A DNA stretch of 64,000 nucleotides from the NCBI GenBank assembly GCA_973895155.1, contig OZ316893.1, forward strand, positions 17,366,770-17,430,769, in the 5' to 3' direction. Below, piece by piece: positions 11,901 to 51,648 of this stretch (the stretch's first letter is position 1; each line of letters begins with the position of its first letter). Below the pieces are notes generated by a model, which saw nothing but the letters and a program-made list of their open reading frames with translations, searched no databases and had not been told where the DNA came from. Position numbers and translations under genes: made by a program. The stretch is from Marsupella aquatica (lineage: Eukaryota; Plantae; Marchantiophyta).

Positions 11901-12409
11901 CTGAGTGCACCAATCCAACTTCTCTACTCCACATTTGTCACATTCACCTATAATACAGGCTTTTTGGTGCCACTCGTTCTCAGGCAATCTAGGACAGAGA
12001 GCTTCCTCTATCCAGCCACGAACTGAGGTTATGGACTTTGTAGATGCCATACAAGAAGAAATGGGTACAACACCTAAGGGTCTACAGATATCACATTCAC
12101 AAGGACAGTCCTTATTGTGCTGGTGCCACCTAAATTTGTTAATTGCCTCTTTCAGTAAGTCCATCTCCACATGTTGTTTGCAGCAACAAACATTTCGGTC
12201 CTTCATCTTGCAAACATAATATGGCTTGAAGTATATGAATGATCACATCCCTACAGACACCCCATTCTGCTCCCTTGTGCACCAGTCACGAAATGCTGAA
12301 TAGAATTGATATTGTAAACATACAGGAGAGTTTTATTAGAAATACTATAGCAAATAGACACCCTCAAATGTGCAGCCATAAAAATCCCTAGATATCTGGG
12401 TACTACTTA

Positions 12410-28865: not shown

Positions 28866-31800
28866 CTATTGCACATCATCAACCTCATCATATTCCATCT
28901 CCCCAGGTTCATCATATGTCTCTCTCAATGTTAACGGGATGAAGTCGGTCCTTGCCCGAGTTGGAACTACAGTCTCCTGACTAGGATGCTCGAATGCAAC
29001 ATGGTCGTCCAAACTGAACTCTACTTTACTTCCATCCATCCGCCTGTTCCGTGCTTGGCTATGGCATACCACCCTCCAGTCATGTGACCCCTCCACATCT
29101 AGAAAGAAAGCCTGTTCAACTTGGCTAGGGAAAACAAAAGGCTCAGACCATTCTGGTACTCTGGACCTAAAATTGGCCAACAAGAACCCATCAGGATCAC
29201 GCTTCATGGTGGCCCTTGGCCACTGCCATTCTGATTTCACCCATGCTCCCTTCATCAATATTACAGGGACACTTGTGTTACCATAATTCAAGACCCAAAT
29301 GTCTGTCAACTCCCCCACGTAACCCATCTTCATCCACCCCCTCTGTTCTTCAGAGGTTCTCTGCTCAAACACAAATATCAAACCACAATCATATGATACA
29401 CAATGGTCACCCTGCTCATCCCTCACTCGATAATGATTTCCATAAGCTCTCATCCGTTTGTAGGTCAGAATAGACAATCGTGGTGGCACAGATAGAAGAT
29501 ACAAATCCTTCTCCATATTTGGGTGATGTCTACTATGCTCTCGAATTGCCACCCGAATCCACTGCTCGAACTATGGGAAGGGATCCTGCTGCCCAGAGTG
29601 TGCAGTTTTTTGCATATCATATTCCCTGCAATATGAGGTATAGGCATAGTTAGGTCTAAACAACACATGACAACCTAAGATCACCCTTGGAATAGACAAG
29701 AAGCATCACAACAAAGGCAAGTCAATTCAATCACTCACCTCCACCATGGTTGCATAGGCTCTGTGTTTGCCAGCACATATGAATGAGCCTTGTCTCGAAT
29801 CGCAATAGACAGTTGCACAGCACATCCCACACCTTCAACAACCTCGCCACTCACTCCATCATCTTCACCAGATTTCCAAACTCTTGTCATAGCTTCACCA
29901 GACCCAGCCATGTACTCTGTTAGGAACCCCAACGTCTCATCCTTAATGTACCCCAATGCCATGGAAGCCTCTGGCCTGTAGTATGTTCTCACATGACCTT
30001 TCAACAACTTCATGTATCGCTCCATAGGGTACATCCATCTCGTACTGACTGGCCCATACTGCCGTAGCTCTTCTACCACATGGATTAGGAGATGAGTCAT
30101 AACATCAAAGAAAGCAGGGGGAAGTATATCTCCAAGTCACAGAGGACATAAGCAACATCATGCTTCAACTGCTCCAATCCTTGGGGATCCCACACTTTCA
30201 CACATATACGGCGAAATACATTGCACAGTCGAATAATGACATTACGGACTGGTTTTTGCACGAGACCTCTGAGGCATAGGGGCAAAATGTGCTGCATCAA
30301 CACATGGTAGTCATGTGTTTTCATACTGCCAAGTTTATTCTTTGTAATATGCTTCTTGAAGGCACCAGCATAGCCAGAGGGCACTTTCAGACAGCTCAAT
30401 CTATACAAGAATGTCTTCCATTCTTCCTGTGTGCACACATAGGGAGCTTGGACTTGAGAAGTACATTGGGATTGCTTGCATGGGGCTTCAACCAAAGGTG
30501 AGGGTGAATCCCCTTCTGTTGCATATCAGCTCAAACTGCTCCTGTATCTTTCTCACCCGACAAGAACTTCAGCAAGCTCTCACAAATATTTTTCTCAATG
30601 TGCATGACGTCCACATTGTGTTTGCTGGGCTCGAATTCCTGCACTCCACAAAGCAAAGAATTCAACAACAGAAACACTAATTAACCAAATAGGAGGATTG
30701 TAACCAACATCAATCCACCATTGCTCCAATCTAAAATGTAGATCATACAGGGGCTGAAGGCTAAGTACATTACCCTCCAGTACTTCAACTCCAAGTCCAT
30801 CAAGGTCTGTCTTTTCACATCGTGTTTCACCACTGGATCCTCAGGTTCTCGATCATGGCACTACTCTTGTCCCAATCAGCCTTCCTGGCTGCCCACCTCA
30901 GGACTTGCTCTCTGGTGACCCTCTGTGGTGGGCCACGAAGCTCTGTTTTGTTGTTGAAGTGTGCAATTTGAGACCGTGTGTGCCTGTAAGGATGATTAGC
31001 AAGCAGATACCTTCTATGCCCCTGAAATTTCATACTGTGTAGGGCATGTGACCACTCACTTGTCACATTTTTCCCACATGGTGTGCACCCCACATAGCCC
31101 TTTGTCACTCGTCCAGATATGATGCCATGGCCTGGGTAATCTGCTATATCCAGCAAACAAATTGCATGGAGTCTAAAGGGGCTGGGTCGAAGAAGCCCCT
31201 TCAGAACATCATGGGTTAACACCCCTTCTATCCACAAAGTCTTCCACTCTTCCACTGCTGGAGCCAACATGATATCTATGAATTGCTCGGTCACAGAAGC
31301 TGGTCCAGGGATTAGCAGCACCATCATCACAAAAAACCTCTTTGTAGTCATCCATGGGGGAAGGTTGTAATTTAGCAGCGTAATTGGCCAACATGAATAA
31401 CGGTTGTTTTTGTCTCCAAATGGGTTTACTCCATCCAGTGATAGACCAAATTGAAAGTTCCGCTTCTCTACAGCAAACTATGGCCACCTCTCATCAACAA
31501 ATTTCCAATGGTTGGAATCTCCAATGTGACGCTGCAGGCCATCACTGCTGTTGTTATCAGAAGTCCATGTCATCAGCTTGGAAATGGTAGGGCATCTAAA
31601 CAGACGTTGTAGTCTAGGAATGAGAGGAAAATGATGAAGAACCTTGGCAGGGTGTGTACATTTCCCTACATTCTTGTACTTGTGCTTACCACAATGAGGG
31701 CATGTCAATTTATCTGCATGCTCTTTGCGAAAGAGAACACACCCATCAGGGCATGCGTCAATAGACACATAGTTCAGCCCAAGGTTAGACATCAATTTCC

Positions 31801-32575
31801 TAGCCTCGTACATATTTTTTGGAATTAAATTACCATCTGGTAACACATTTCGGCACAGGAAGGTCAACAACTCTGTCACAAATATATTGGGAACATTGTG
31901 ATTGCCACAGATGTTCAACAACAACACAACAAAACCCAACTTGGAGCAGTTTGACCCCTCGTAGATAGGAATGCAAGCTTCTTTGATGTGTTTTGGGCCC
32001 CCAAACACCCACTCCCTCTCTGCTGCACCTTCCCCGATGTCAAAGTCAGGTTCAGGTGGGCCTACTCCAATGTGTGGTTGCGGTTCATTGTCCTTTTCTG
32101 ATTCCACTGTGTCGTAATAAGCATCAAGGTCTTCAAAAATCTCTTGAACCATTCTTGGGACATCCATCCCACCGTCCTCAGTGACTGCCTCTGCATCTCC
32201 ATCTTGGTCATCCACGTTCTCATGTTGTACCCCAGGACCATCCTCTGCACCGTCTATGTCCTGCTCTACGTAGTCTCTACGCCTAGCTGTATTAGAATCC
32301 ACAAAGTCAGCTCTCCACTCTTCATCAGAGGAGTCTTCTTCTGCTGGTACATTCCAAACCCTCCACCTAGGGTGCCTTTCATGCCGCAGCAGGTGAAGGT
32401 GCACAGTGTTCAAACTCAACGACTTGAATCCTTGGCACTGTGTGCATGGGCATCTCATCCTCCTACTCCTACCTTGGGCGGCCCAGGCTTGTTCACGCAT
32501 CCACAATTTAGAATCATGATGCCTAATCCTAAATGGGTTGTGAAGAGGCAACCTTGGAGCCATCACTATACACAC
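28866..32575 (-). pseudogene. CACTA TnpD transposase (Transpos_assoc, Transposase_21, DUF4218, DUF4216)
   Basis: RCPCTQC; IDACPDGC; LSLDGVNPFG..YNLPPW; DYPG..CTPC; DVMHIEKN; MKTHDYH; RWMYPMERYM; EPFVFPSQVEQAFF; in-frame TAG at 31478-31480, further frameshifts and introns. Confidence 0.95.
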
Positions 32576-32774
32576 GCACTTAGCGCTTTGTCATTTTATT
32601 ATGCGAGTGAAAAATACACTCCCTGTTAAGGATTTCACCCCTGACTATACTTGCCAAAAGACGTAGCATAGCATTCCAAAAAAACAAAAAAACAAAAAAT
32701 ATAGGTGCCAGAGTCATGTACCTATTCTCAAGTGAATGAGACAAAATTCCTAAATGTTTGAGGGTGTCAACTCC

Positions 32775-35700
32775 TGTCGCACCCCTACCCTGGGCCTTAA
32801 ATCCGGGTTAGTGTCGTGGTGCGACCTCGACCACCAGTAGGGGTGAGGGTTCGGGCAAGGAGGTGTGTAGTGACCTTCAATAGCCCTAAGTCGGGCTAAG
32901 CCGCTATACTTACTGGTATAACACTCGCATAATTCGTACTTGTCATAGGTATATTTATTTTCCACCGCTGGAATTTTCCCTCAGTTAGTGACGCGGACTA
33001 ACTCCCGACTTGGGGCTTTTCAAGCCATCGACGTGACAGGACCTTGTGACATGCAATGAGTGGCAATCCCTACCATTAGTCCGCACCCGGTACGTCCCTT
33101 AAAATGGCGCCTTTGCCCGGACAAAGCATACACACAACACCAGTTACTCTCAGAAACATTAAGGGGAAAAGACTACATTTACTCAGCGAAGCATCAGCTT
33201 ACATGGTTGACTCGACTTCAAAGGGGGTCAGCAGGCCCAACGGCAGTCGATGCCCAGTCTCTACGAGGCCCTGCCTCGCACTTGCCCAGCAAGCTTGACT
33301 CTGGCTCTCACTCCTTGGTACACGCTGACCCTACTCAGGCCGGGACTCCCCGTGCCTCGCCTTTCTTCTACTGAGATAACTAAGCCTTCTCCCCCTTCCC
33401 ATCGCGGAAGGGGAAGCCTAAATACTACCATAGCGGAAGAGAACCAGAGGATACTACCTTCCGGGGTACTACCTACTGACTAACTAACTGCTGACTACCG
33501 GTCGCGCTGCACTGACTGGTTGACCGTCGACTACGAGTGTGCCAACCGGAATGGCAGCGGCCAAGCCTACTGACAAACTCTAGTCCGTTGATGGACTCAA
33601 TCCTACGTTGGCTGATCCTAACTGACCGGCCCTAATTCTTCCTACTGCCGCTAATCGACGCCTAATGACAGTCATTCTGTCGTTACGCCTAACTAAAAGA
33701 TGCCGCTGACTTAACCGCCTTGCGTGGCGCCTGCTTCTACCCTTCGCTAACTACCCCTTACGTGTGTGCAGTGGTTGGACCAGGGCTGGTCCCCTTGTCG
33801 GGGCGAGACCTCGAGCCGCCTTGATCAGAGGTGGGCCCAGGTTTTCCCCGCTGGAGGACGAGCAGGGTGACGCGGTCCTGCAAAGCCTTGTTGTCCCGTA
33901 ATGCTTCCTCCGCCTCGTTTGCAGCTTCATCGGCTTCGGTCTGGAGCCGCGCCACCTCCAAGTTGAGCTGGTCGATGGCGTCGCGATGGACCTGGTCCTG
34001 CGCTAGCAATTTATCTCGTTCGGCGGAGAGACTAGCCACCTGCTGTGCTGCCTGCAGGAATTGTTTGTTGAGGTCGGTCAGGCTGGTAACCCGAGCCGAA
34101 GATTCTGAGTGTAATTGAAGCACGGTGTCGTCCAGCTTCTTGAGTTCGGCCTGCGCTCCGCTTAACTCCTAGGTTAGTCTGTCCCTCTGTTCGACAGTGC
34201 GGACTAAATCCTCGCGGCGGGTCGTTGCCTCCTCCTCGAGGTGCTCTACCAGCATCTGGAGACGCCCGATCTCATTCCCCTTCGCCATGAGTTCTTCTTC
34301 CAAGCGGCTGACGATCCGTGGTTGGTGCTCTAACATGAAGAAGGCTGGCTGAAAGTACGCCGAGACTTGTTGTCCGATGTATGTTGCCAACTCCCCAGAC
34401 ATAGTCTGGCTAAACTTCTGGACCAGGTCGTAGGCCATGGTCCCCAGGGCTACTTGGTAGTCCTCCATCCTCTCGGGTACCGGTGGTTCCTCGGCAGGGG
34501 CAATGAGCTCCTCCGTAGTCAGCGCTGGGGAGGGGAAGGTTTCTTCAGGTGGTGGAGGGATTGGGGGTGGTTGTACTGCAGGTAGCGGAGGCTCAACGGA
34601 AGGAGGCGGTGGAATTTCCATAGGGGGCGGTTGCGGAGTATTAGTCGGGGCTTCCGGCTCGAGGTTTGTCCGAGGGACAGTAGTCCGCGTAGTCGGGGTT
34701 GCCTCTGGGGCGGGGGTGACATTACCCGGGGCTGAGGTGGCCGTATTCTTTCCTCTGGCCTCCCGCCGTGCCTTGTACCAGGCGAGGATAATGGCGATAT
34801 GACTCCCCAAGTAAGTCTTCCCTCCAATAGCCATACCACCCTGAGCCCGCTTTAGCTCCCCCGAGAATCTTCGGTAGAAGAATTGGGCCCAGTTTCGTCG
34901 TTTGTACTGTTCCACCTGCACTATCGTGCAGAGGGAAATCTCGGATCGTGGCTCAATCATGTGTAGGGTAGTCCGTATGAAGTTAAGCCGCTCCATACAG
35001 GTTAAGTTGGTGCACGCCCCCTGCTTGTATCCGTTGTCCGTCTTACCCTCGGGTTTGAAGTGCCGCGGCGTATACTCCTTATCCCAAATTCGGATTTCCA
35101 CCGGCACCGGCCCGGTTGGTAGGCCAAAAATTTGCGTTAACCGATGCTCCGTGAGTGATAAGGTCTGCCCCGAAACCTTGGTGGTTGACGCATCAGTATC
35201 GAAATTGGAGATGAACTCACAAATCTCCTTCGGCCCGACGGCGCACGGCCTCCATAGTAAGTGGGCGAACTGCTCCAACTGATGCTCCTTGAGATAGTCC
35301 GCATGTTTGAGTTTCTTGATCGCGATCCAGACTACCTCGGGGACGCGGATTACCTGTAATAAGTTGGACTTCGGGTTATCCGGGGGCCGTCGGGTCTGGT
35401 TGGTCGGGGGGTTTGCCGGGGCAGGTGCAGGCGCGGCGTCGGTCCGTGTTGATTCGGGGGCCGTCGTAGTCCTTGACCGCTTATGAGGACGCTGTTCGAG
35501 TTGCGAACTAGCTCGCTCGGAACCCGAAGAACACTCCGCGTTGATTACTGGACGGACTTGGGACTGGTTTGGCGGTACTCCGGTGGTCATCGGTTGAGGC
35601 GCTGGGGTAGCCATATCCCAGTTGAAGGCGTTGGAGCTTTCCCCGAGGAACGTGAGATTACGCGCTGCTTCCCGTTGTCTGCTGATATCTTCTTGGCGCT

Positions 35701-36609
35701 TTTCGGCTGTGATCTGCTGGTCTAGGTACCCCGGAATCTTGTCGAACTTTGCTTGAGTAAGCTGCTGGTTGCCCTTCAGCTTAAAGAACTTAGCTGGAAC
35801 CTCAAGAATCGCCTCTGCTACCGATCTAAGCCCTTCCTCGCTGAGATATAGTTCGGTGATGTAGTCTCGCAGCTCGTTATAGCTAGAATCCCTGGTGATG
35901 GCTGTCCTTTCGCAATTAACCAGTGCTACCTTGGTTACCAGCTTCGCGTACCTTCGTTCGTAAGCGGCTTTCTCGGGGCAAGAGTACCAGTAAGTCTCGG
36001 AGAACTTAGCACCTACCTCGCCAAACAAGGTCCAAAATCCCAAGGCTGTGAGGGTCATACTAACCTCGTAGTCCGGTTCATTGCGTCCACGTTCCCACCT
36101 GGCTGGTCCTTTCTCGCGGAGGCCTCGCTCGTCTTGACTAAATCTCGCCACATTCCGCTCTTCTCCCTCGATAATTTCCTCGTAAAGGTCGACTGGATTC
36201 AATCAAAAAGGCGAGCGGATGGCAGCGTCCGTGAATTCCAAAAAGGTAAATGTGAGCGAATGGCCCGCAGTGCCATCGGCTCCTCTCTTATGGGGGTGCC
36301 CGGACGAGCCCGAGCGTGAGAAGGTCAGGCCGTTTGGTCATTGATAACGAGCTGAAGTCGGTGTCTCGGTCCAAGCGTGATTCTTCTAACTGATTTTTAC
36401 TCCGCTGCCGCCACCGTACCTCGGTCGTGCGTAATAATCCCTTTCCTGAACTCGTAATTATTCGGTTATCTTAACCTACTCCTAATCTAATCATAATGGC
36501 AACTTGACGGCTATACGTGCTATTCTACGCTATGGCTACGGTCCTAATGACCGTATAAGTCCTAATCTACGACCTGGGTTCGGTCAAGTGACACGTTACC
36601 CGTGTCACA
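32775..36609. mobile_element. 3,835-bp solo-LTR-like insertion with 5-bp TSD
   Basis: Begins TGTCGCAC, ends GTGTCACA; TSD ACTCC at 32770-32774 and 36610-36614; no terminal direct repeats, no gag/pol. Confidence 0.88.
33758..36202 (-). pseudogene. ~815-codon gene inside the solo-LTR-like unit: plant-mobile/Transposase_32-like domain, Pro-rich linker, coiled coil
   Basis: ORFs 34169-36202 and 33758-34123 are in the same frame, separated by one TAG; ICEFISNFD..LTQIFGLPTG..DNGYKQGAC..RNWAQFF motif. Confidence 0.8.
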
Positions 36610-36614
36610 ACTCC

Positions 36615-37304
36615 TCCGCTGTCCCCACATGTACTGCCTCTGCACGTACATCCATGACCATATCAGAGTCCAATCATGTATAGTCATAGACACAGGTGCC
36701 AGGTGCGAGACCGGTGTGAGATGTCCTCATCTTACTACCACATCAAATACGGATACCAATCCTGTTGTCGATGCCACTCAGCCCTGAGGTACTCAGGCAT
36801 GTACATTAAGTCATCAAGGTCTAAACCCTGCTCATGCCATGGTGGTCTTCGATCCGTGCCTACAGGCAGTGGCAGCAGTGCCCTCCACGGTGCACATGTT
36901 GCTACCAAGTCCCTCCACTGGGTACTAATTAGTCTATATTTGCATATATCTTGTGCGCCAGACACCACAAGAACCCTCGGCCAGACATGTGTAAGAACTA
37001 TATCATCTGCCCAATCAGGCAACAAGGAACCACCTACAGCATCGTGCTTGTCTAACTCATTTGCTGAAAAGTAAATGTCCTCTTCGGACTGTGCATCCTC
37101 ATTCACCACAACATTCACAACACATCCAAGGTCTGTAGGCATTATCTCGGATGGAGCTACACTCTGTCTGGTTACCAATCCACACATGTAAGCCCAAGCA
37201 GTAGCCATGCACAATGCAACCCGTAGGAGGATCCTACATAGGGCCTGTCGGTCTGGAAGAGGCAGCATACCCACCAAAGTCTTCAGCCAAACAGAGCCCA
37301 GCAA
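36615..37304 (-). pseudogene. F-box domain cargo gene (last codons displaced to 32750-32774 by the insertion)
   Basis: LLPDWADDIVLTHVWPRV..ICKYRLISTQWRDLV..W is an F-box pattern; downstream frame reads ..VHVGTAEE/LTPSNI* across the ACTCC target site. Confidence 0.7.
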
Positions 37305-37499
37305 GTAGATTCACAGTCACACCCCACGCAGCAGGAAACAACAATCACTTCAACTGCGACCAACCATGACAAGATGAGTTAGTTCAAGGATCACATTTAT
37401 TACAAAATTGTGATTTATACAAAAATATGAGGGACTCCTACTCCCCACTCTCTCCCACCATTGCTAAGCATACATCTCTGTTGAATCTTGGAGGGCCAG

Positions 37500-38306
37500 G
37501 CCTCAAAAATATCAAAGTCCCAAGAATTCTGTCACTTCCCTCTCGCTACTGATTCCAGAAGCCAATCAGGGGAATGCACCCAAAGATTGTTGTTCATGAC
37601 AAAATGACGCACTATTGTCTTAAAGAATTTTCTGCATATTTTCATGTATGACAGACCTACAACATGAGTGGAGGTTTCTGTTAGACTCTCCTCCACTGTC
37701 CCACCTAGCTCAACAACTGTGGACTTGTACAGTCTGCACTTAGTCTCCCCAATTCCCTCTTCTGCAAATACCACACTGAACCCCTTCATAATGGTATTTC
37801 TCTCCTTGCCATGCTCATTCAATATAGCATCTGCACGCATAGGATGGTGTCCTATGTTGACAACAGGTCCATATTGGACAAGCAAAGTTGGGTTTCTCTG
37901 CCGCTGCTTCATAGGCTTCCTTTTCAGCCAAAGCCTCTATAGTGGCCTCCTCACTCTCCCACAACTCATATTGCTCAGTACTCTGTACACACCTATGATT
38001 AACAGAATCAGTCAGCCAAGAGACTTCAACTACTTTTAGACCTTGGTTGGTAATGGCAAAATCAATGAAGGACCATGACCACTTGTTCATCACATCCAGC
38101 CATGTCCCCGCAACAACATGTGTAGTCTGTGGAGTGATGTCCTTGACTTCAGTCCCATGGAACTCTGAGAATTGTTTTTGTACGATTGGCCAACTCACTT
38201 GGGTGAACCCATAGTGGCCAGGAATCAAAATGGCTTTGATTCCAGCCAACAGAGGCGGGTGGTCAACCTTTGTACGTTTCCTAGAGGTCATGTACACATG
38301 GGCCAC
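37500..38306 (-). pseudogene. Tandem BRCT-domain cargo gene
   Basis: BRCT1 LLAGIKAIL..HGTEV..TTHVVA..VVEVSWLTDSV..EQYEL; BRCT2 MKGFSVVF..ELGGTVEESLTETSTHVVG..VHSPDWLLESV; frameshift between ORFs 37815-38306 and 37532-37912. Confidence 0.88.
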
Positions 38307-38888
38307 CTAATCACTGCAGACCGGAAGATAATGCGTTCACCTGATAATTGGAGGGCCCTTAAAATGTTGCGTTTATAACTTGGTCCAGTCCAGTCGTCTG
38401 GTGAGTCTCTGCTCCGATTCCAAACGGGAGAAATATTGGGACAAACGTACTAGACACCTGCAAGGATGCACCTCATAGTTTGAATATGTGCCTTCACAAT
38501 ATTGAAGGTGACAAGTGAAATTGTTTTGTGATGCCACATACAGATGTTGTAAATGGGCAGACATTCAATGAGAATACAAAATGTTGGTACACTTTAAGGG
38601 AATTCTCGCAAATTAAATAGCCTGTAACTTATATGCTCATAATGAGAAGTCCTGATTTAATTTAAGCAGTGTCATGTAAGTTGTGATCAAAATGATTGCA
38701 GAGTTAAAAAAGTTCCTAGAAGGCTTAAGGGGAGTTTTTGAAGGCATGTACCCAGGAACAAGTAATGAACTTAGGGAACTTGTTGCCTAAGCATCCTCTC
38801 CTACAGAGGTCCTTCTTCTCAAAATTGGAATGTCTGCAATCTCCAAGGTATCCACATCAGGTGCACTATGCATGTATAGTATTCAGGT

Positions 38889-39567
38889 TCAAAGCCAAGA
38901 AATGTGATCTCTCATGGGAGTGTGCAAAGTAGGATCTATGGCATGGCGATGACAATAGAAGATCCATCGATCAACACCATGTGCAGAGTGATGATAGATG
39001 TGTCTGTCACAAGCATAGCCTTCTGCTTGACGCTCCTTCAAACAATGAAAGTGCCACATGGTGGGACACCTAACACAGTGGACTATGTCCACCCAGAAAT
39101 CTTCATCGTGCTAACCACATGCCTTGCACTTATGAAGTGGGCAAGCTGTGGCAAGATCGGGCAAACATGAAAAACAAAAGAACCTCACAATATCTGTCAA
39201 GGCATTTCCTAACAAGTGGTGGAGCATCAACAGAGCCCTCATAAGACCCCAACATCCCACACTCTGCACACTTAGCTTGCTTCTCCAAACAATCAGTGCA
39301 CATCCAGCCTCCCTGGTGTGCTGACGGGAGGCCCACCCCTGGACAGTTGTTTTCTATAGCAAGGTCAAACTCCGGGTTGAGGTGGAAATGCCTCATCCAA
39401 GGGCCCTCACATATGGCTAAGCCCCCACCATCGTCACAAATGGCACAACAATGAGCTGCCTTCTGGAAAATCTGACGTGCGGAGAAGTTACTACCATCTG
39501 GCCCAACTACACCTGTGTTGCTCACCTCTGTCCCCCGCTTCTTGGCTCGGATTTTAGGGCGTGCCAT
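38889..39567 (-). pseudogene. EDM2-type PHD-finger cluster cargo gene
   Basis: CAICDDGGGLAICEGPWMRHFH..C..WMCTDC..KCAECGMLGS..C..C; after a 1-nt frameshift (~39185) FFCFSC..ACPLHKCKACG*..CVRCPTMWHFHCL..IFYCHRHAIDPTLHTPMRDHI, which follows the EDM2 PHD region and its ID..L.TP.RDH tail; TAG at 39111-39113. Confidence 0.82.
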
Positions 39568-40238
39568 GCCTACGCATGAGATAGATAGTACAATTTAGCA
39601 GAGTGCAGAGACAATACGATTTAGCAGTGTACAAAAAGTACAGTGTAGCATATAGACTAGAGTGGCAATTGCTACTGCAATGAAATGTTCACACACAGAT
39701 ACAGAGTAGACATACTTTTTGGTTTGTTGAGCCCACACTGAAAACTGATCCCCTAGTACAATAGCTCCACCTACACCTCAATTTTGTGGCTATGATTCAC
39801 CAAAGGAGATTTGCAGCAAGATTTAATGCATTTGAATCACATACAATAGTCGTGACATGTAAAACAGACTTTTTTGGAACAGGATTGGTATCAAGCAGTG
39901 TGATCAGGGTTGTAATTTATACATCCTAAATAGGCTATGATAGTGAATGAGACAAATAAGTTAGGCATAAATCACTTTTTCCATGTTATCACATGGCCCA
40001 TTAATTCCAATCTTTGAAAGGAGACTTTTAAGTGAGCTTGCTAGCCTCTTAAATTAGGATATATATTCTACTTAGTGTAGCCATAAGAGGATAAGTTATG
40101 TACTGTTGACCCTAAACCCTGGACCCAAAATTGCTCAAAATTCAAAATTTTAAGTAAATATCCTCTCTGTTCAAGTCAAAGTGTTAAGTTATAGGTCAAT
40201 GGTCTGTGGTCTATGCATGCAGTGTGACAAGTGGTCCT

Positions 40239-40688
40239 CTAGAGCGTGTGATCCAAACATGTGTAGACACCAAAGTCACCGGTGGTGGGGTCTGGGAGGG
40301 CAGGACAAGTGACATCGCCAGGCACACTACAGGATGGCGAGTGGTTCCAGATGATACATTGTGCTCTGTGCAAAAACCAACATCCAAGAGAACGGTCATC
40401 CAACTCTGGGCCAGAAACCCTACAGGCAGGACAGTCATATTGGCAACTATGCACACACCCTTGGCACCTAATTTGTGGTGGGTCATGTACAAGAGACAGG
40501 AATACCAAGGATGTCGGGAAGGGTACTGAAGCAGGTAGAGGCCGGCTGTAGTTGTTCCTAGCAACAACAGGGTACTCAAAGTACCATGCAGACTGGGCTG
40601 GAAGGATCCCAAGTCTGACATACTCAAGGTGCAACATCTCTTCCTTGCGTGCAAGTTGCACATGTTCAGCATTGCGGGTCCTCACCAT
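40239..40688 (-). CDS. Cys/His-rich protein of unknown function (probable cargo gene)
   Basis: Open 149-aa frame with CQGC..CPAC..C..H..C..H..C..C..C..H; same strand as the other cargo genes; no family recognised. Confidence 0.45.
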   Translation of the reverse strand: MVRTRNAEHVQLARKEEMLHLEYVRLGILPAQSAWYFEYPVVARNNYSRPLPASVPFPTSLVFLSLVHDPPQIRCQGCVHSCQYDCPACRVSGPELDDRSLGCWFLHRAQCIIWNHSPSCSVPGDVTCPALPDPTTGDFGVYTCLDHTL

Positions 40689-42502
40689 AAGTGTTGCTTT
40701 TGTGGAGATGTCCTGTGTTCATGTCCTCTGATGAGCACCTTCAATCAGCAAGGTGAGCAGGAGCTGTATTTGCCTCACCAACAGCAACCAACCTTAAATT
40801 ATCAGTTCCCACTCACTGTGTCATTCCCCTGGTTCCAACTAGAGGTCACAGTATAAACATAGCATGAAACAGTCCTAATCAACTTGCTTACAAACTACAA
40901 TATCCAGAAAGAGTGAAAGTCTCACCCTGCAGTGAGCAACAGAGACGTAGTTCACTGGATGTGTTGATATGCAGTTAAACCTCCACTATTGCTTACTTCC
41001 AGTGTATGCTGCTCAGAAGAAGACATCTTAGTAGCAAAAAATGTAGTCTTACTAATACTTCACCTTCTGACTGAATTCTAGAGGAGAGTTGAATTGCCAA
41101 TTATAGCAGGATGAGAATGAGTGTGAGAAAAATGCCGACACCATAGGCAAACAATGAAAAAGTAACAGGGTTGGGCAACGTACTCCACCTACCACCCTGC
41201 ACTTAGGCCGCCAACCAGCACTTGGTGTAGCGGCCTGAACTTTCACGGTCAAACGTACACTTGGACAATTAAAACATATAAACTTTCGCTAGGAAACTTT
41301 GATCAGTCTAGGGAGGGGATAAATGCTCTCAGTTCATATTGAGGCTCAATTTTTGTTTCAGTTGATTGGAATGATGGCAGAATGCCTTATTCACTTTGCT
41401 GAAATTCAGCAGGTCAAAGCAACAGTTGCAATGAAGGACACTATGTACATAGACACAATTAAGACAAGAATACTTCAATCTATACTGGAATCCAGGTTGC
41501 ACAACTTACCAGGAAAAAGGGGCAGTTGGAGCAGGAGCTCTGCAACAAAGGCACCACCACAAAGAATGCTAAAAGATGTCAACCGCCCATAGTTGAAGGT
41601 AAACACTGTGAGCTTTTGAAAACAGACAAGGCATGAGGGATTCATCCAATGTCCCACTTCAAGGCAAGACAAAACTATTCATCCATCACAGCAGTGCTCC
41701 ACAGGAATGAAACCAAGCAAAATTTGGTGACCTCGGCCGATGACAAGGCCAATGTAGTTCACAATCCTTGACCGATCAGGATATGGATTGGAATTACAAT
41801 TAGTCAGCTCTTCTTCTTTGTTTTCTAACTCTGGGGCAAATGAGCATGACCAGGGAATTCTCTGAGAAATAGAAATGCACAGGGAAAATGAAATTGGCTC
41901 ATTGAGTTGCGCAAGACCGACCACTGCAGCATACTTGGACAGTTGTTCCGCAAACCATAAAATACCCTGACTTACATGCAATCTGTACACAACTTCTGTT
42001 GGCTGTCCTGCATCACGGCAGTGGCGTTGGGACAAGGTAAGTGAATATTGCCATAGCTGAAGCACATTGAGCGTGCAGCAAGAAGTGAAGGAGCATGGCC
42101 GAAAGCAGAAAAGAAAGACAGACAGGTTTTACAAGAAGAAAACTAACAACCGCCAATCTGCTCAAATCCGTTGCACAGATCAAACCCTTTGAACTACACA
42201 GCCCTCCTTTGAAAACAATCCAATGTGCTTTGGCTGGTGGATGACAAGGACTGGGAGAAGAGGAAACGTCTGAACAATCAATCCAAATGACGGGACACAG
42301 AGACCAGGCACAGAGAGGATTTGTGCTTAGACAAAAACCACAAATTGTAGCATGGGCACCATAGCATGGGCGCCATAGCATTGGGCGGCAACGGGAAGAA
42401 TTACATCAAATGAGTGGACAAAGAATGAACAGTCCGGTTATAGGCAAACGGCGACTGATGCCCTGATGCAATGAAACATGCATTGACATAGCGAAGGGAC
42501 AT

Positions 42503-43160
42503 AAAAACTACATAAGCCAACTTATTGACCCTTTAAGGCCCACAATTTCAAGGGGAGGGACAAAGACAGCAATAACAGACACAAAGACAAAGCTGTACTC
42601 TGTCAATTGAGTAGGCAAGTGGGTGGGTGAAGATCAACAACCAATGTAGCAGCGCAGCCAGAGTAGCAACAAAGAAGCAACTTGCCCTCAGTCTCCTATT
42701 TTGCAAGCAGATTGTGCTCGCCCTTAATCTCCTATTCTGCAAGCAGCTCACGCTCGTCCCTCTTGTTCTGCAAGCAGGTCATTCTTGTCGGTGATGGTGC
42801 AAGCTGTCCTCCTAAACTCTGAAACCCAAAATGAATGTCAAGACCAAGCACCTCCAATCTGTTCGATCCCTTCTGCAAGCAGCCGAGCGGCAGACGACAA
42901 TGTAGGGATCAAGAACCAAGTGCAAGGCGGACATTGCACAAAATGAGGAACGGGGGCAGAGACAAAATCTACCAAAATCTACTTCCTGGGGTCCAGCCCA
43001 CGGATCAGCTGAAAGATGCGCGAAGGGGAGAAAAACTACATAAGCCAACTGACCTTTTTAAGGCCCACAATTTCAAGGGGAGGGAAAAAGAGACAAAGTT
43101 GTACTCACTAGATTGAGTAGGCAAGTGGGTGGACGAAGATCAACAACCGCAATAGCAGCA
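42503..43160. repeat. ~140-bp direct repeat spaced ~530 bp apart
   Basis: AAAAACTACATAAGCCAAC..TAAGGCCCACAATTTCAAGGGGAGGG..ATTGAGTAGGCAAGTGGGTGG..AAGATCAACAACC at ~42503 and ~43031. Confidence 0.85.
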
Positions 43161-43449
43161 AAGCCAGAGAGGAAACAAAGGGGAAATTTGAGCAAAGGTA
43201 AGCGACACCGACAACTCACCCTCCGCCTCACCCTCCGTCTCACCCTCCCAGCTCCAAAGTTGCAAGAGCAAGCAGTCAAACACACTGAAACAAAGCGGGT
43301 GGCAGTTTCAGTATCTCAGGCAATGCAAAATTAATCCATACTTAATCAGCCCTGGTCGCATGTTCCTTCAAAGCCCCTCATACTAGCAAGCAGGTCTGGC
43401 CTGTGAATCTTGTAGTGCTTAACGATACAAAGCCTTCCCAAGTACCAAT

Positions 43450-46400
43450 TGTAGTATTGCATTAAGGACATAAATCAGCATTTAATGCCCAAAACTCGGT
43501 ATTCGTTCCCATGGAAGAACATGTTGGGAATGGTTTTCTATCAATTAACACTTATGAATGACTAAGGTGTTGAAAACACAAAAGTGAGCCTTTTACTATG
43601 GATGCTCAGCAAGGCATAGATTTAAATGTTTGCTTAACATTATAAATACGATTAACAAAATGGAATAAATTAACAAAACACAAGAAAATCTTGAGGTATG
43701 ATGAGGGAATTTGGAATAGACCAAGGTAACTCCTCAACAACACTTAATTTGTGATGATTTAAGGTGATAAATCCGTAAGAACATTTCTGGAATGAAATAC
43801 TTTACTAGGATAATTATTAAAATGCCGTCAACATATCTTAACCTTTCCTTCCAAGGTACTCAGTTAGGATTAATAACCAATCACTTCAGCATCCAGTCGG
43901 TACTCCGAGTCACGAATAATGAACACCATCATCGTCAAACTAAAGTCATAGGTAATTGGTCAATAACATTCTTTGCATCCCGTGCGAAAGCAATGTCATG
44001 CCAAAAACTTATGCATCAAGAACTTAGGAATGTATAGCCTTCACCAATTAAGGAATCTATCTCCATACATTCAAAAGATTTCATCATTTCACAAGGTTTT
44101 ACTTCTCTGGTTTGATCTCCAACATTCAAACACAAGGAAGGGGGAAGAATTCCTTTGTATTAATCACTCATGCAAATACAGAGTTTCTCTCTACAAAGTG
44201 AAGCCTTGTCATGCTGCAAATTTGCAACATAGTGCTTACATAATTCTTTCACATTTCAAATGACATAAATTCTACTTTATATAGGCTGGTAGAAACCCAA
44301 GGAGAGAGAAAATGAAAGGACATGCCCTTTCATGCCTCAAGGGTTCTTGAACTAAAGTAAAAATAACAAAGGTGTGCTATAGTAGTACCTAAGGGTCACA
44401 TGAGGGTTCCTGGTATATAAAACTAACCAAAAGGTATTGCAAATGTGAACTAATGTAAAAGTGACATTACGGTAAAACTAATGAATAGTGGCTTTGTCCT
44501 AATTTTAGTTTCTAAACCAAATATCAGTTTGAGATGAAACATTCCCAGAGTATTCTCTTAGGTATAGTCTTCATGCTGGTAAAATCTCAGACTTTTCTGA
44601 GGTGTTTAGGTACTTCAATAAAATACCAAAAAGTACCGGAAATAAAGAACTATAGAAAATCGAAAAAAATTCTAAGTGTTTAAGGCATAAACACGTATAC
44701 ACGTAAACCCGTAAAAGCGTAAACTCGTAAAATCGTAAAATCGTAAAGACGTAATCGCGGTGCAGCAAAAACTTAGCAGATTCAAACATTTTTAACTTCC
44801 TAGCTATAAGTCGGCTTGAGCTGAAACTTTCAAGGATGATTCTACTGCATAATGACTACCTCCTGAAAAAGTGTGAAACTTTTCTGACCATGAGAACTAT
44901 TTAACTAAAATATCAGAGATCGGCTGATCGTGGTAATTGCACACACAGCTCATTTTTGATGAAGTGCTTTGGAGTCCGGCTCTTGAATCTTCTAGTCTGC
45001 ATTGCTTCTCCAATGATGTCCAGTCTTCTTTCTTGGTAGCATGCAAAGAGCAAGGATTTATATGGCGATCCTTGTCCAATAGAGGCAATAGCCTCCGATG
45101 AAGCATAACATCAGGTAAAATGTTCAGTTGATCTAAATTGTTACAAAAGGTAGCTATATTACACCTTTGAGCTAGAAAAAGTTCAAAATTCATAAATTTT
45201 CCATCATTTCCAACTAATCTTACTGCAAATCGATCTTCTTTCCGGATTTTCCCTCAGCGCTTTATCTTCTTTTATCGTTCGTTCAATCTGACATTGTTTT
45301 CTTTCTTTGCCAGTTTTGCACTGTCGCTTCTCTGCTCTTCTCAGATCGCATTTCTCATTGTAGTTCTGTTTCCAGCACCAGCTCCTCTCTCACATCCGCC
45401 ATAGTCTTCGACTCTTCACTTGAAAATTTCCTCTTTTCACAATCATGTTGTCCTGCGCTGTTTCTCTCTCCAAAAGAATCTCAATAATGCTCTTCTGGAG
45501 TACCCATTTCAGACATGTTCTAGTTCTTCAAAAGAAAACATCAACAGCGAAAATCAATGCAGCTCCAATTCCTTCTCAGCTCTCAGCATCTCGCCTGCTC
45601 CGCCTTTTGTCTGCACCGCTTTCTACAGCTACAACAAAAATGAATGATTTTCTCCCAAGCCCGAGCTCCTTAGCTCTTTTCTATTTGTCTTGCTCACTGG
45701 TTCTCTTTGCCTTCACCATAGCCCTGATTCTTCACGACCAATCTTCCCCTATTCCCCAAAAAACGACTACGGCTATTCACACTCGCGAATTTCATCAGAA
45801 CTTTCTCCTCTTCCAGTGACATTTTTCCGAATTCCATTCATGATCCGTTCTCGTTTCCTACCACCCTCCAGTCCTTCACTGCTCATCCACAAGTTCAAAA
45901 GTTATCTCTCACCCATGTTCGCATCACGCAACCACCACAATCAAGCACACCAAATCTCCAAGTTCTCCTCGACTGCCTCTGGACGCCCTTCTTTTCTCAG
46001 TTCCACACTCCATCCCGTTCGATCTTACGTCCTCTATCCTTAGCCTCAGATGATCACTTCAACACGATCACAGCCTCCCGAAACAACTGATCGACTTTGC
46101 TGTAATTTCATTTCCCACATTTGAACACCTTCTCTGTCCTTAAGCTATCGGTTATTCATTTTTGCCATCTCATCAAAACAGGAGCTTGTCAACACCATTA
46201 CCCTTCGCTTCCGCCACACCTGCTTTGCCCTATATATTAACCCAGAAAATTTCCAACAGCATCCACGACTACCAAGCTCCGAATTCCTTATCGGACCTTA
46301 GCCTTCTCCCAAGATCCAAAATCACAGCGCACCACACTCTTCGGCCTATCCCCTCTCTTCTTTTCCTCTGAACTCCCTGGCGCACACACATCACTCACAA

Positions 46401-46962
46401 CCCATCTCCACAGCTCCTTTGATCTGCCGTTTTTCTTTCCTTCACTTTATTCCAATGCTCGCCATCGCCCACCTTCCAATTCCTCTTTTCTGCTGAAGTT
46501 TAACTTTCACCATGTTTCCATGAACATCCCTTCATTCTATGGCCGACCCTCATCACTCACTCCTTCCACTGTAACGATCACCTCCGTTACTTCCATAGCA
46601 GTCGCGACCAGACGAGTAATGACCACGCGCCTCCGCCACTCGAAAAAAAATTCTCCAGATCTCCACACACAACGACCATCATCCTCGGCTGAATCTCACT
46701 CAATCACCCTGAGCTCTCTAGCGCGCCCACTTCCCGAGAATTTTTCTAACTCCCTCTGCGTGTCTAACTGCTATCTCCAACATGTCCTTATGAATTCGAA
46801 TACTCCCAGGCCGCCACATGTCACTTCCACATTAAATGCCTCAATTTCCTTAAGCCTAAGCTTCAACTTTCACCCTTTTATTCCTCTTTTGTCTCAATAA
46901 CCTTCATCTCAAGTTCAGTTTCCTCTTTGTTTCTTTCTTTCACAAAACAGAGAAATATTACA
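43450..46962. mobile_element. Possible degenerate long LTR nested in the CACTA
   Basis: TGTAGTAT ... ATATTACA inverted ends, non-coding LTR-like composition, CGTAAA micro-repeats ~44690-44750, minus-strand CTATATAAA ~44277; no matching TSD. Confidence 0.35.
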
Positions 46963-47414
46963 TTCCGAGCCGGTCAAAAGTAAGTCGACTAGATCCAGCA
47001 CACTCCACTTCAATTGTCAAACATTTTTCCCGACGACACCGGTGGGTAATATGTGGGGTTTCAATGAACAATGGGCCAGTTTGAGAATGATTAAGAAGCG
47101 CGCACCCCACGTTCTTGGGTGGTGGTTGGGTGGGGTTTTGTTTGATAGAAGAAGAAATCACCATTCTCTTCTGGAAGAAAGAAAATCGCAGGAAACAGTG
47201 GGCGGGAGAACAAGGCATGTAATAGAGAACAACAAGGCATGTAATAGAGTACTTGTGGTTACTCTAACGGTGCACGAACACTCACCTTTGTCTTCCGCTT
47301 TGTCTGCTGTGGCTAACAAATCCCAGAGCGCTGCCGAGCTCGGTGGTTGCTCGATGGTTGAAAGTGCGCAGCTCACGTCCCTACCTCAATGTTCAACTCA
47401 ATGTGGGATGCAAC

Positions 47415-47492
47415 AGCTCCTCTTGGTCGCATCTCCTCTTGGTTGCATCTCCTCTTGGTCGCATCTCCTCTTGGTCACAACTCCTCTTGGTT
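47415..47492. repeat. 16-bp microrepeat CTCCTCTTGGTCGCAT x5
   Basis: Direct inspection. Confidence 0.85.
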
Positions 47493-48819
47493 CACAGCTA
47501 GCGCGCAGCAGCGCTCGATGGTTGACAATGCGCAGCTGAGCTAGGAGAAGAACTGAATGACTGTGGCTGCTTTTCTCTACTGCCGAAGCACTCGGCTGGC
47601 AGCTCTGCAAACATTGATCGTAGCTGCAATCTCTACTCCATTGATTGAAGAGCCTCCCTCTTCAAAGCTTGGTTGACCTAGCTCTACGATTGATGGAGCT
47701 TGTCATCCTCTGCATCAAAAACCCTCCACCACCCGACCTTGCACGTTACACAAAGCTCCTTACCACCAAGCGCTTCTCAGGGATGCCTCGCAACAATGTC
47801 CTTACCACCTAACGACTCTCAAGGCTGACTCACCCAAACCAATGCAAACCCCTTGCAATCTAATACACTGTGTCCAAACAGAGGCAAAACTGTCAAAAGC
47901 GCTCGCAGTAGTGGATGCAAAAATGTGAAGTGAATGAGCTCCGACCTTCCCTCGCAAAATGCTTACCCTAAACTCTGCTTGTATGCTAAACTCACAAACA
48001 TGAAGCAGGTCGTTCTGTTGCAAAGCACAAATGATGGGTCCCAAACGCTTGGGGTGCGGACACTCAATAGTTCCCTTCACAAAAACGGAGTTTGATACGA
48101 TGACCAAGGCATACTCACCCTAACCCAAGACTTAGTGCAAACAGGACCCTAAACGCTAATCAAGGGCCCGTTTCCGTTGAGTTGAGCTGTTAGGCTTGAT
48201 AAGTCCTGGCTAGAGTCTTCATGTAGGGGAACAATGTGGACTTAATTAGGCAACAAATGAGTACATTTGGGTGAGGGTAAAGGATAATTTTAAATAAATC
48301 CCTCTCTGTTCAAGTATGGGGCCACTTAATCAGTTGTGCCCCACCCTAACCCCCCCTCCGGGCCCCCCTCATGGAATTACCTCTATCAAAAGTACCCTAA
48401 GTTATGAAAAGTACCCGTTACATGGATCTTTACGGTGCAATGTTAGTTAACGTTGGTGATATATACAAGGCATGTTCCTTAAGCACTGCGGCCAAAATGT
48501 AGCACGTCAACCGGTCCTTTTGAAGTACACTCTTATGATGAACCCTTGTAAGACTATCGAGTGTCCTAGTCTTTGTGTGGACCTTTATTGTGGATTCCAA
48601 GAATAAAATCCATGATATATGTGTAGAGTGTTCACCCTTCACAAAATAGCAAGTACACTTTTCATAGTCTTTAACTAAACCGGGAAACATTCAAAGTCTT
48701 TTATAGTCTTTAAGAAAACCTTGGCAATGGATGCGAGTCGTTTAAAGTATGGAAGAAGGACTTAGTGGGCTTAGTCCTATAAGGTATGGTCTAAATTGCC
48801 CCGGTTTCTACTAGTGGCA

Positions 48820-49020
48820 CCAGCTATTTGGGTGGGGAAGGACAAAAAGCGGAAGCCTTCTGGGTCAGGGAGCCACACCATTTGCCAGGCCACTGTGGCT
48901 GAGGTAGAGAGCATGGCACCAGCCTTATGCGAGGTTGTGGCCGTCAAGGAAGCAGTCCGAGAGGTAGGCCAAGAGGACCAGTTAAGGGAGGCCATGACAG
49001 GCACCAACCCAAGGTTGTGA
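48820..49020 (+). pseudogene. 3' end of the gene interrupted by the CACTA element
   Basis: PAIWVGKDKKRK..TNPRL* continues in frame from ..EETDKGKA at 24669. Confidence 0.85.
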
Positions 49021-51648
49021 ACCATTGATCGACATCAATTAACTGCAACCTTGGGAAGACAAGACAACCCGACTCATAGAACAAGCCTATGAGGAGGACC
49101 ACTACGGCAAGGTAGCCAATGCCAGGAAGGAGAAAATAGAAGCCGCAGGGGTGGGACCCCCATAGATAGAAGCCGGACAGGCCAAAGCCGGGTTAGTGGA
49201 AGCCGAGGAAGTTGAGGCCGAGGTAGTAGTGGGGCCCGGACACGCCAAAAAAGGGTTGACCAGGTTAGGAGTGGATAACCTGTCAGAGAACGGGAGGCCC
49301 ACATTGATCACCGAGGAAGGATTGGGGGCGTCCATTGAGGACCAGCCACCAGTGTCATGACGGTGTAAGGGCACCGTCCCTTTTAAAAAGGGCGGACGTG
49401 GAGGTAGGAGGCGTGAGTGGGCAGGGCTGGCTCAAATCTCCAAGTCTCAAATCTCCAAGTTTAGAATTAGGATCAGGACCAAGAGGCGGCCCTGACACTT
49501 AGATTAGTGGGATTGCGGATCCACTGGTAAGAGCAACACTTGTGCTCCTGCCTCGCTGTACATAGCCTGTAGATTACAATTAGGATAGATTAGGCTTACG
49601 CTACAAGGAATTAGGCGGATCCACTGCCAGGATAAGTACCTGGGCAGCAGGGAGTTCAGGGCCTTCTTCTTTAGCAAGTTTGTAGTGCACCAGCAGGGCT
49701 GGGATCAAGTAGTAAAAGAAGCTCTCGGTTAGTTGTACACTTACCCTTGTGTATATTCATGTTTCGTCATGCCTAAGAGATGAATAGAGTTGGCCTCACG
49801 GCTTAGTTCGCAGATCTTGTGTATGAGAAGTACTGTTTGTATGGCAAGTGCATGGTATAACTCAGTCAGAAGGAGTCATTTTGCTATTTGTGTGTCGCAT
49901 TAACTTGTTTGAAGATTGCCCACATCAACCAAGAGAGAAGGAAGTAAGCAAGGTAGTAAGAGTTGGATGTGTCGAGCTGAGAGAGGTCTTAGCGGCTAAC
50001 CCAAGCCAGTTGGGGATCATTCCGGAGGCGGAATCCAAACATACCTAAAGAAGATAAGGAGAGGAATACAAGGGAAGGCATAGAATAGGCCGGCTATGTA
50101 TCTCATGACCCAATGAAGGATCTGTCCAGTATATGTGTGTAAAATGTTAGTAGAAGAGAGTTAGCAGCGTCCCATGCCGCTAAGCCGCGGAACCGGCCTC
50201 GCCGAGAGCGAAACCTGCGGGAATCGGCTTGTGCAGGGGGGTTTCTTGGGTTTAGGGAGCCATGGGTCGCACCACACATACTTCCACTATGATGGTTGTC
50301 CAAAATGCACTGGCTAATTGGTTCAATTATTTCCTGGGGACGAACACCATGGAGAGGGAAGAGAGAATTTATCTGACGAGGGAGGATCCTCTGCAAATCA
50401 GACAACCAAATTCAGTCCACCTTTGTTTCAAACTAAATTGACCAGCATGAATTTTTCAGCTGTAAGTTCCATCTGTCCTCATCCATCTCAATCTATATTG
50501 ACCTGTCTCTCGCTGTAGATTTCCTAGAGTGATGCTTCATTGCAGTCGTCGTGGGGTGATAATGTGCACATCCATGTTCCTCTTGTAGTCATACCTACAA
50601 GAGGTTAAATTGAACACAACACTGAGAATTTCAGAACTAGGTATTTCTAAGAACTCTGGCTCAAGCAATAAAATAAGACCCCACTCTTTCCTTCCATGAT
50701 TTTGGAATTTATCCTCGCGATGGGCCCAATCCTTGGCCAGTTGAGCCAGACCAGCTATCCTACTTCAGTTGGTTTGATTCAGTGTTTTGCTCTGGTCTTA
50801 ACACTTTTCTCAAGGTGAATAGGATTTATATCATAAGAATTGATTACCACATAGCGACAACAACAAAAACCTGCTTCTCTAGTCCAGGGGATCGAGTTTT
50901 ATATGATTTATAGGGTTTTCATGATGATTCTTCTGGCACTCTAGCATGAGCTGTTAGAAGAATAAGGTCCACCCTGGGATGGGCTGAACCTGTATAAATG
51001 AAAGCTAGATTGGTTTTTAAGAAAACATTCTATCATTAATAAGGAATCAGGTATGCGCACCATAGCGCTAGGCCCTGTGTGTACGAGCCCAATATGAAGA
51101 CCCCTTCTCACCAAAACTATCATGAGCACAGGATCTGATTCCCAACCTTGGTTCCTAGAGATTGAGCTTGGGTGATATGTGACAGAGTCTTGCTATGATA
51201 GTCTGGTGTTAAGGGCATAAACTAGTGTTTACCAGCCTTCATAACATCCCTTCATGATCCTCAAGTACAAGGAGATGGTTTTGGCACCCAATAGTGACAT
51301 TTTTGGTGTTAAGACCCATGCCAATCGCTTGACACTGAGAAGTACACAAAGAGGCAAAAATCTTGGTTTGTAGATGATAGAGTAGTAGAGGTAGACTACA
51401 ATGAAAGTGAAAGTGTCAGCAATGATAGTGAAGAGATAGCTCACCCTTCTATTGTGATATATAGCTCAGATGAAGATGATGCCTAATGCCATGTTGTTCC
51501 CTCCTATGCAGCACATGGTGGGAATACCCGGATACCTCGGTCATTTGCTGAAGTAGTCTGCTCTCAGGAATTTTCCGACATAGTATCCACATGTCTATCT
51601 ACAGACCTCCCAGATGAGGAAGTAGTATTCAACTTCGTAGAGTACAAG

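Follow-up and report, generated by a model that had tools for sequence, protein, structure and literature searches.

A CACTA transposon of Marsupella aquatica carries, in a row of cargo genes ahead of its TnpD transposase, a small PHD-only gene of the EDM2 family. The copy found in the window, by which we mean the whole stretch of 64,000 nucleotides that was analyzed (positions 17,366,770 to 17,430,769 of contig OZ316893.1), is a pseudogene, and it has intact relatives. Judged by its conserved ligands, the family is a predicted non-enzymatic zinc module that is conserved and packed with other cargo ahead of TnpD. We put at about one half the probability that intact copies work in trans on chromatin, as a decoy or adaptor without enzymatic activity, and so ease the host silencing of the element.

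The PHD gene is part of a CACTA element

The element spans 24,147 bp and both of its ends are inside the window. Its TIRs begin with CACTA and are perfect over 18 bp, and a 3-bp TSD, GCA, flanks both ends; the PHD gene lies between them, as supposed when it was called transposon-borne from the sequence alone. The features of the element are the following:

24670-24687, plus strand: CACTA TIR, 3′ end of the element; TSD GCA at 24667-24669
27335-27814, minus strand: weak TnpA-like exon; Transposase_24, E 0.025, below cut-off
28866-32563, minus strand: TnpD transposase, its frame interrupted by a stop at 31478-31480; Transposase_21, E 3e-51, and DUF4218, E 2.6e-23
32775-36609, no strand assigned: nested TG...CA insert of 3835 bp with a 5-bp TSD, ACTCC; outside the CACTA cassette
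36735-37268, minus strand: weak F-box-like ORF; PF00646, E 0.12, below cut-off
37532-38291, minus strand: two-BRCT gene, frameshifted here; PF00533, E 1.5e-3 and 4.2e-7
38889-39567, minus strand: PHD-only gene of the EDM2 family, broken copy; 225 aa when read through
40239-40688, minus strand: Cys-rich ORF of 149 aa with no Pfam family, 671 bp upstream of the PHD gene
48799-48816, minus strand: CACTA TIR, 5′ end of the element; TSD GCA at 48817-48819

The TnpD region also gave DUF4216 and Transpos_assoc matches below the cut-off. All the cargo genes lie on the TnpD strand, in the order Cys-rich ORF, PHD gene, two-BRCT gene, F-box-like ORF and TnpD, and the gaps along this row are 671, 597, 263 and 331 bp, the last one being the distance from the stop of the F-box-like ORF to the TnpD ATG once the nested insert is removed. 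A YAG is found 2 nt before both the PHD and the TnpD ATGs, compared to 11 of the 568 ATGs that the element has on the same strand. In a search for subterminal repeat arrays, no 9-mer occurred more than twice in either terminal 800 bp of the element.

Contigs of public runs, which come from three coded organisms, were mapped to the region in two sets, X1, X2, X3 and X5 in one and X1, X2, X4 and X5 in the other. Between 417 and 12,921 contigs per run mapped on positions 33000-48900 in all four runs of the former set, PHD gene included, and these hundreds to thousands of contigs per run indicate that the PHD gene is a standard component of a repeated family. The region of the Cys-rich ORF, whose product begins with M-V-R-T-R, is likewise covered by many contigs in 4/4 runs, and other copies of the two-BRCT gene have two bases more at 37879. 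The stretch 41036-41681 is skipped or replaced in other copies (the joint was seen in two of the four runs) and is a variable part of the 5′ region of the element.

The nested insert is likely a solo LTR, and other copies pass from position 36608 straight into the sequence found at 32743-32767. It is GC-rich and contains ORFs of 677 and 136 aa with no Pfam family, part of one being similar to 22019-22423 (29 % over 138 aa); its CpG o/e of 0.92 is barely depleted, compared to 0.2-0.3 in the CACTA genes. The 677-aa ORF (34169-36202) was considered as CACTA cargo and rejected, because it sits within this insert.

The window copy of the PHD gene is a pseudogene

The PHD gene starts with the ATG at 39567 and its frame is open to a Cys codon at 39189-39187, past which the Cys/His pattern resumes one base over, in a frame that runs from 39185. 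This shifted frame meets a TAG at 39113-39111 and ends at the TGA stop at 38891-38889. Translated with an X at both breaks (frameshift and TAG), the gene gives 225 aa with a basic start, a cluster of Cys/His residues and a tail, in agreement with the continuous protein of ca. 225 aa that the sequence-only reading had obtained by mending both breaks. The same reading described the gene as apparently intronless; the family members are all single ORFs, which is consistent with an uninterrupted coding sequence. The parts of the protein are:

39538-39564, minus strand: basic motif at the N-terminus (residues 2-10), matching the register of H3 residues 1-9; putative mimic and/or NLS
39289-39447, minus strand: PHD1 (Cys41-Cys93), with Trp57 at 39399-39397 in place of a conserved Cys
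39132-39270, minus strand: PHD2 (Cys100-His145), shorter than that of host EDM2, with the frameshift (ca. 39185) inside
39042-39128, minus strand: variant PHD3 (Cys147-Cys175), with the TAG at 39113-39111 inside
38892-38966, minus strand: C-terminal tail of EDM2 type, its Cys/His conserved; present in EDM2-like proteins and not in NSD-type comparisons

Three of 52 candidates are intact relatives of 217-226 aa, with identities of 77, 71 and 38 % over 97-100 % of the length. All three have Cys at the position of Trp57, an open frame at the site of the shift and no stop at the site of the TAG. Additionally, the read-through protein could be aligned to an EDM2-like protein of 1295 aa with 30 % identity over 211 columns (pairwise E 3e-23); this match and the intact relatives exclude a chance reading of the gene. 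Pfam gave only sub-threshold NSD-like PHD matches on the read-through protein (E 2e-4 and 2.7e-3), and a PDB search with this single sequence gave no match.

The column of Trp57 is Cys in 14/14 family members and 18/18 host proteins, and essentially all the depth at position 39397 encodes Cys in the four runs of the survey. Behind 39185, two extra bases are present in 4/4 runs, with 39-100 % of the depth. At position 39113 a Glu codon has 65-91 % of the depth and the TAG letter of the window ca. 9-35 %, depth not being read as copy number. By depth arithmetic, the window letter in X2 equals the depth of one contig (1977.8) that has an intact frame and is four letters off the window, and in X4 it likewise matches one intact-frame contig (2883.9); in X2 the TAG-bearing contig has a depth of 1978 vs. 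1813 for the Glu-bearing contig. Trp57 and the frameshift look private to the window copy, whereas the TAG is common to an amplified subfamily. The lesions first noted, one frameshift and one TAG, are thus both present, but the second one is shared by that subfamily. Of 94 contig differences from the window in the PHD region, 40 were listed, and these were 14 synonymous and 26 non-synonymous; the count was not kept as a test of selection, since many of the rows differ from the window in a near-fixed way and thereby mirror the decay of the window copy itself.

A family of short PHD-only proteins

A profile made from the three intact members found 376 proteins at E ≤ 0.001, and the best six of the 150 matches listed were of 166-245 aa, with 161-250 bits. 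With a wider profile, 18 of 458 candidates were of 109-304 aa, and any names they had were only "hypothetical." The family totals ca. 30 short relatives, some of them partial; the complete ones have 206-245 aa (with one call of 304 aa) and share the position of the stop, ending in a motif similar to H-I-S-W. When 15 family modules were aligned with 18 from hosts, the zinc ligand columns proved to be kept in 13-14 of 14 family members and in 17-18 of 18 hosts, and one ligand of PHD2 was swapped from His to Cys in 14/14 family members. Identities within the family run down to 29-45 % with the ligand columns kept, which implies long selection. The Trp had raised the suspicion that the family consensus might lack zinc ligands; it occurs only in the window copy.

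The location in a transposon is established for the window copy, the other members being known as proteins from short contigs. Searches for the genomic context of family members in metagenome scans gave 0/97 and then 1/202 (L001, a match of 23 residues that was not used), and 0/54 in viral contigs. An AlphaFold model of the member P0002 had a pLDDT of 64, with residues 1-48 under 50. Its fold neighbors included the PZP domains of JADE1 and BRPF1 and PHD tandems of NSD proteins, several of them H3-bound; with query TM-scores under 0.3 and a middling model, these matches give a hint about the class of fold only.

The module probably derives from an EDM2-like gene

Searches for longer relatives returned 12 of 3842 candidates, with 28-32 % identity; five are named EDM2, ten have PF12047 (RFD-like domain) and none lists SET. 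Human NSD2 and NSD3 match only positions 20-173 of the 223 of the family profile (47-54 bits), and the other non-family proteins, nearly all of them EDM2-like, reach 72-184 bits. Moreover, a profile of the family tail matches 133 of 151 non-family proteins and misses P0056, an oomycete protein of NSD type. Pfam found neither SET nor PWWP in the 225-aa ORF or in the family. An origin from NSD was rejected on account of the domain content and of the EDM2-type tail, and we classify the module, from these comparisons, as EDM2-type and not NSD-type. The expectation that EDM2 and EDM2-like proteins would be better matches than NSD-type ones was borne out by the bit scores, PF12047 and the tail; the best hits are not unrelated PHD proteins.

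EDM2 consists of 2.5 atypical PHD repeats and a methyltransferase-like ELP domain (PMC7529245). Neither this domain nor the RFD-like N-terminal domain is found in the 225-aa ORF and its relatives, so the description of the gene as PHD-only stands and, since the ELP domain is absent, the gene is not an EDM2 orthologue.

A careful tree was built with 33 rows, taken from a set of 44 after removing six flagged long branches and five rows that were redundant or odd. The family formed one clade (100/100) on a long stem, sister (93/87) to proteins of 620-770 aa without a methyltransferase region, of which the named ones are Marchantia MARPO_0005s0286, Riccia R1sor_003797 and Calypogeia CAM6087769.1. 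A quick mixture-model tree of the 44 rows left the family unplaced, and two alternatives survived AU tests: the family branching off outside every host EDM2-like protein (p 0.133), or grouping with the full-length EDM2 of liverworts (p 0.275). Identity between the family and any host protein is only ca. 30 %. The comparison with host EDM2 proposed at the outset hence delivers a single family clade, tentatively placed beside the liverwort paralogue. Derivation of the module from the EDM2 family is well supported by the sequence comparisons; a canonical EDM2 orthologue is no more than a candidate source, because the tree places the family beside a paralogue and the AU tests (p 0.13 and 0.28) leave the alternatives in place. 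The module may have been captured from a bryophyte EDM2-like gene.

The liverwort paralogue without methyltransferase resembles the family in that it ends soon after the PHD module, with 31 % identity, and in that the three named proteins start with M-A-R. It differs in being a host gene whose product, of 620-770 aa, has a long N-terminal region and keeps the acidic residues before PHD1.

Changes in the module relative to host EDM2

With Arabidopsis EDM2/ELP1 and EDM2-like proteins the family shares an atypical multi-PHD arrangement, the same Cys/His columns and the C-terminal tail (PMC7529245, PMC7472560, PMC4980392, PMC3632883). It is nevertheless of ca. 220 aa rather than ca. 1300, is carried by a transposon, and its coding sequence is uninterrupted, whereas ELP1 has 17 introns (PMC3632883). 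The PHD2 of the family lacks an insert of ca. 25 aa present in host EDM2, besides having the His-to-Cys swap, and the acidic run before PHD1 is gone: the six residues before the first Cys are acidic in 0/15 family members vs. 18/18 hosts. In AIRE, the stretch that aligns to these residues is acidic. Acidic residues before the first Cys grip H3K4 in fingers of the AIRE/BHC80 type. Because they are missing from the family, histone reading by the module may have been lost or changed. EDM2 is reported to bind H3K9me2 (PMC7472560, PMC4980392), and this activity is, given the altered sequence, probably not simply transferable to the transposon module.

The basic start follows the register of histone H3

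The start of the PHD protein is basic, as the sequence-only reading had noted in calling it NLS-like, but an NLS is not the only fit, because it also fits a mimic of the H3 tail. It follows the pattern A-R-x-K-x-x-A-K-K, in the register of H3 1-ARTK-4 and 7-ARKS-10 (PMC6028506). The motif used for the tests also included positions 5-6 of H3, between these two tetrapeptides.

A usable leader was present in 27 of 30 members. In their best windows, position 1 was A in 16 or S in 5, position 2 was R in 20, position 4 was K in 23, position 7 was A in 17 or S in 6, and position 9 was K in 17, column counts that are inflated by the choice of the best-scoring window. The motif scored better than in the members' own shuffles, at p under 0.05, in 16/27 cases. 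The H3 order had a mean score of 4.56 vs. 3.39 ± 0.20 for permuted orders, with two of 3000 permutations as high, in a test that was devised after the motif had been seen and on members that are related. When the first Ala, favored by the Kozak context, was left out, 8/2000 and 0/2000 permutations were as high. The re-test with host controls used a changed set of rows (7 dropped and 12 added), and in the controls themselves, made of 90 host leaders and 94 host N-termini, 28/300 and 29/300 permutations were as high. The motif comes directly after the Met in 11/27 members, including the window copy, and sometimes has 2-6 extra residues ahead; at least four of the 27 lack it or have only part of it. 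Prediction of a complex between the 30 N-terminal residues of one member and its own PHD module gave 0.43, 0.01 and 0.02 in separate runs, and was counted neither for nor against the mimic.

Similar starts were also seen outside the family. A separate clade of short, PHD-only EDM2 derivatives of 270-401 aa (P0037, P0039, P0041, P0055, P0065, P0067, P0122, P0144, P0181, and P0182) is nested in seed-plant EDM2, its named members being from grasses (Eleusine and Miscanthus), and three of these ten proteins start with M-A-R-x-K. Short EDM2 derivatives led by A-R-x-K may have arisen a second time in grasses. The EDM2-like proteins P0025-P0027, P0031, P0047, and P0064, labeled as from liverworts and Mesotaenium, start with M-A-R. 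In all, 15 of 151 non-family proteins have this start, and angiosperm EDM2 mostly starts acidic.

A possible role in easing host silencing

For intact copies we favor, at roughly even odds, an action in trans as a decoy or adaptor. The PHD protein would be made from the transcript of the element itself, would enter the nucleus and would bind either chromatin or the host readers and writers of the H3 tail. Acting at the level of H3-tail recognition, it might make silenced copies more expressible, to the benefit of the element. The amplification of the subfamily bearing the TAG is what one would predict for a trans-acting gene; the large share of depth of this subfamily also means that an element can do without the full-length protein in cis, and that this protein may be dispensable. 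A narrower version, which we advance tentatively and consider doubtful as it stands, would have bryophyte DNA transposons encode a histone mimic, in which the H3(1-9)-like tail is joined to a rewired PHD module of EDM2, the heterochromatin reader of the host; it would sequester or divert the writers and readers of H3K4/H3K9 as well as the EDM2 pathway.

Other roles are conceivable for the same protein. The module might be a targeting subunit: it would hold the TnpD/TnpA transpososome at a given chromatin state and so guide where insertion or excision takes place, and the BRCT protein may contribute by engaging break repair. The reader-type fold neighbors, several of them H3-bound, agree weakly with this (TM-score under 0.3), as do the BRCT pair adjoining the PHD gene and a window made up almost wholly of nested transposons; we think it rather unlikely, as the protein is a separate ORF not joined to the transposase and a subfamily with the TAG has still been amplified. 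The role in processing the TnpD/TnpA transcript that the sequence-only reading had proposed is also unlikely. In it, the module would imitate EDM2 in the ASI1-AIPP1-EDM2 pathway and carry Pol II beyond proximal poly(A) sites, which would yield TnpD/TnpA transcripts of full length from methylated chromatin; but the RFD-like and methyltransferase (ELP) domains are missing, the host proteins closest to the family are paralogues with no methyltransferase either, and the acidic patch of PHD1 and the insert of PHD2 are gone. Nevertheless, the cargo lies head to tail upstream of TnpD, on one strand and 263-671 bp apart, the YAG before the PHD and TnpD ATGs hints weakly at common splicing under a single promoter, and the AAE complex favors distal polyadenylation over intronic heterochromatin (PMC7472560).

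The loss of the acidic residues before PHD1 could instead mean that the module has moved past histone reading and is a zinc-binding scaffold that acts, with the BRCT and F-box-like cargo, on targets other than chromatin, the start being an NLS and nothing else. The motif is indeed basic, some members have 2-6 extra residues ahead of it and others lack it, and residues 1-48, which include the start of PHD1, were modeled at a pLDDT under 50; but a plain NLS is not expected to have small residues at positions 1 and 7, to give the result of the order test, or to have a parallel in three of the ten proteins of an independent grass clade that also start with M-A-R-x-K, and we hold this to be quite improbable. 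Capture of host genes by Pack-CACTA elements is well known (PMC13317346), and the three lesions of the window copy and the stop in one subfamily might suggest that the gene is a neutral, transduplicated fragment of host EDM2. This explanation is largely refuted, and we give it hardly any weight, by the complete ORFs with their own start and a common stop position, by ligands that are near-invariant at 29-80 % identity, by an identity of only ca. 30 % to any host protein, and by the long common stem (100/100).

Comparison with known systems

Action of intact copies as a decoy or adaptor would have precedents in VANC of VANDAL and TnpA of Spm, which are element-encoded anti-silencing proteins (PMC13317346; bioRxiv 10.64898/2026.08.24.746577). 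As with these, the PHD gene is a separate accessory gene in a plant DNA transposon with a proposed trans action against silencing. VANC and TnpA, the best-characterized plant proteins of this kind, differ in being sequence-specific DNA binders that cause hypomethylation, whereas the PHD family is a zinc-finger module derived from the host, has no detected DNA-binding domain and has a role that is a prediction; it would act on the readers and writers of histone marks instead of recognizing DNA. Searches of the open-access literature yielded no paper on a transposon-borne EDM2 PHD module, although repeat databases or subscription papers may have one; PHD and EDM2 are absent from the main text of PMC13547354. 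PMC10241880 confirms the role of EDM2 at intragenic transposons and makes no mention of such cargo.

The histone mimics of influenza NS1 and of G9a are similar in having a short motif that resembles H3 1-4 and 7-10 (PMC6028506). In our case the putative mimic is N-terminal, covers both K4 and K9 in the right register, precedes a PHD module in the same protein and is encoded by a transposon; if the histone-mimic reading is true, a plant transposon would have its own version of the histone mimicry known from viruses. The hAT elements of Dothideomycetes that have captured histone H3 are also DNA transposons amplifying an H3-related sequence, but they carry whole H3, mostly inactivated (PMC6710886), compared to a likeness over nine residues on a conserved, unrelated protein. 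The PHD1-3 cassette of NSD1/2/3 (PDB 29hg, 7cro, and 7crp) is a homologous triple PHD (E 2e-13 to 2e-11), yet the match ends at profile position 173, there is no EDM2-type tail, and the family has no SET or PWWP. No plant EDM2 entry was among the matches of the PDB search, and the family offers a compact handle on the EDM2 PHD module. The protein is small and easily expressed, and intact versions exist in many sources, so that the persistence of CACTA elements in heterochromatin could be tested directly with it.

Other elements in the window

Two related ORFs coding for a coiled coil plus a RING-like region, at 2322-2900 (minus strand) and 6482-7192 (plus strand), are divergent and are probably cargo of another element. 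Broken transposase-like frames without a Pfam match occupy 10176-12242 (minus strand), next to an array of repeats with a 20-bp unit at 12912-13818; from their motifs, we take these frames to be presumably of the Sola type of DDE transposases. A fragment of a Plavaka transposase (PF18759, E 8.6e-19) is found at 19554-20473 (minus strand) and, outside the CACTA element, there is a fragment of a Ulp1 protease (PF02902, E 1.1e-11) at 51487-51966 (plus strand). Finally, a Copia retrotransposon spans 53566-60292, with direct repeats of 133 nt that are 98 % alike and a stop between the frames for integrase and reverse transcriptase.
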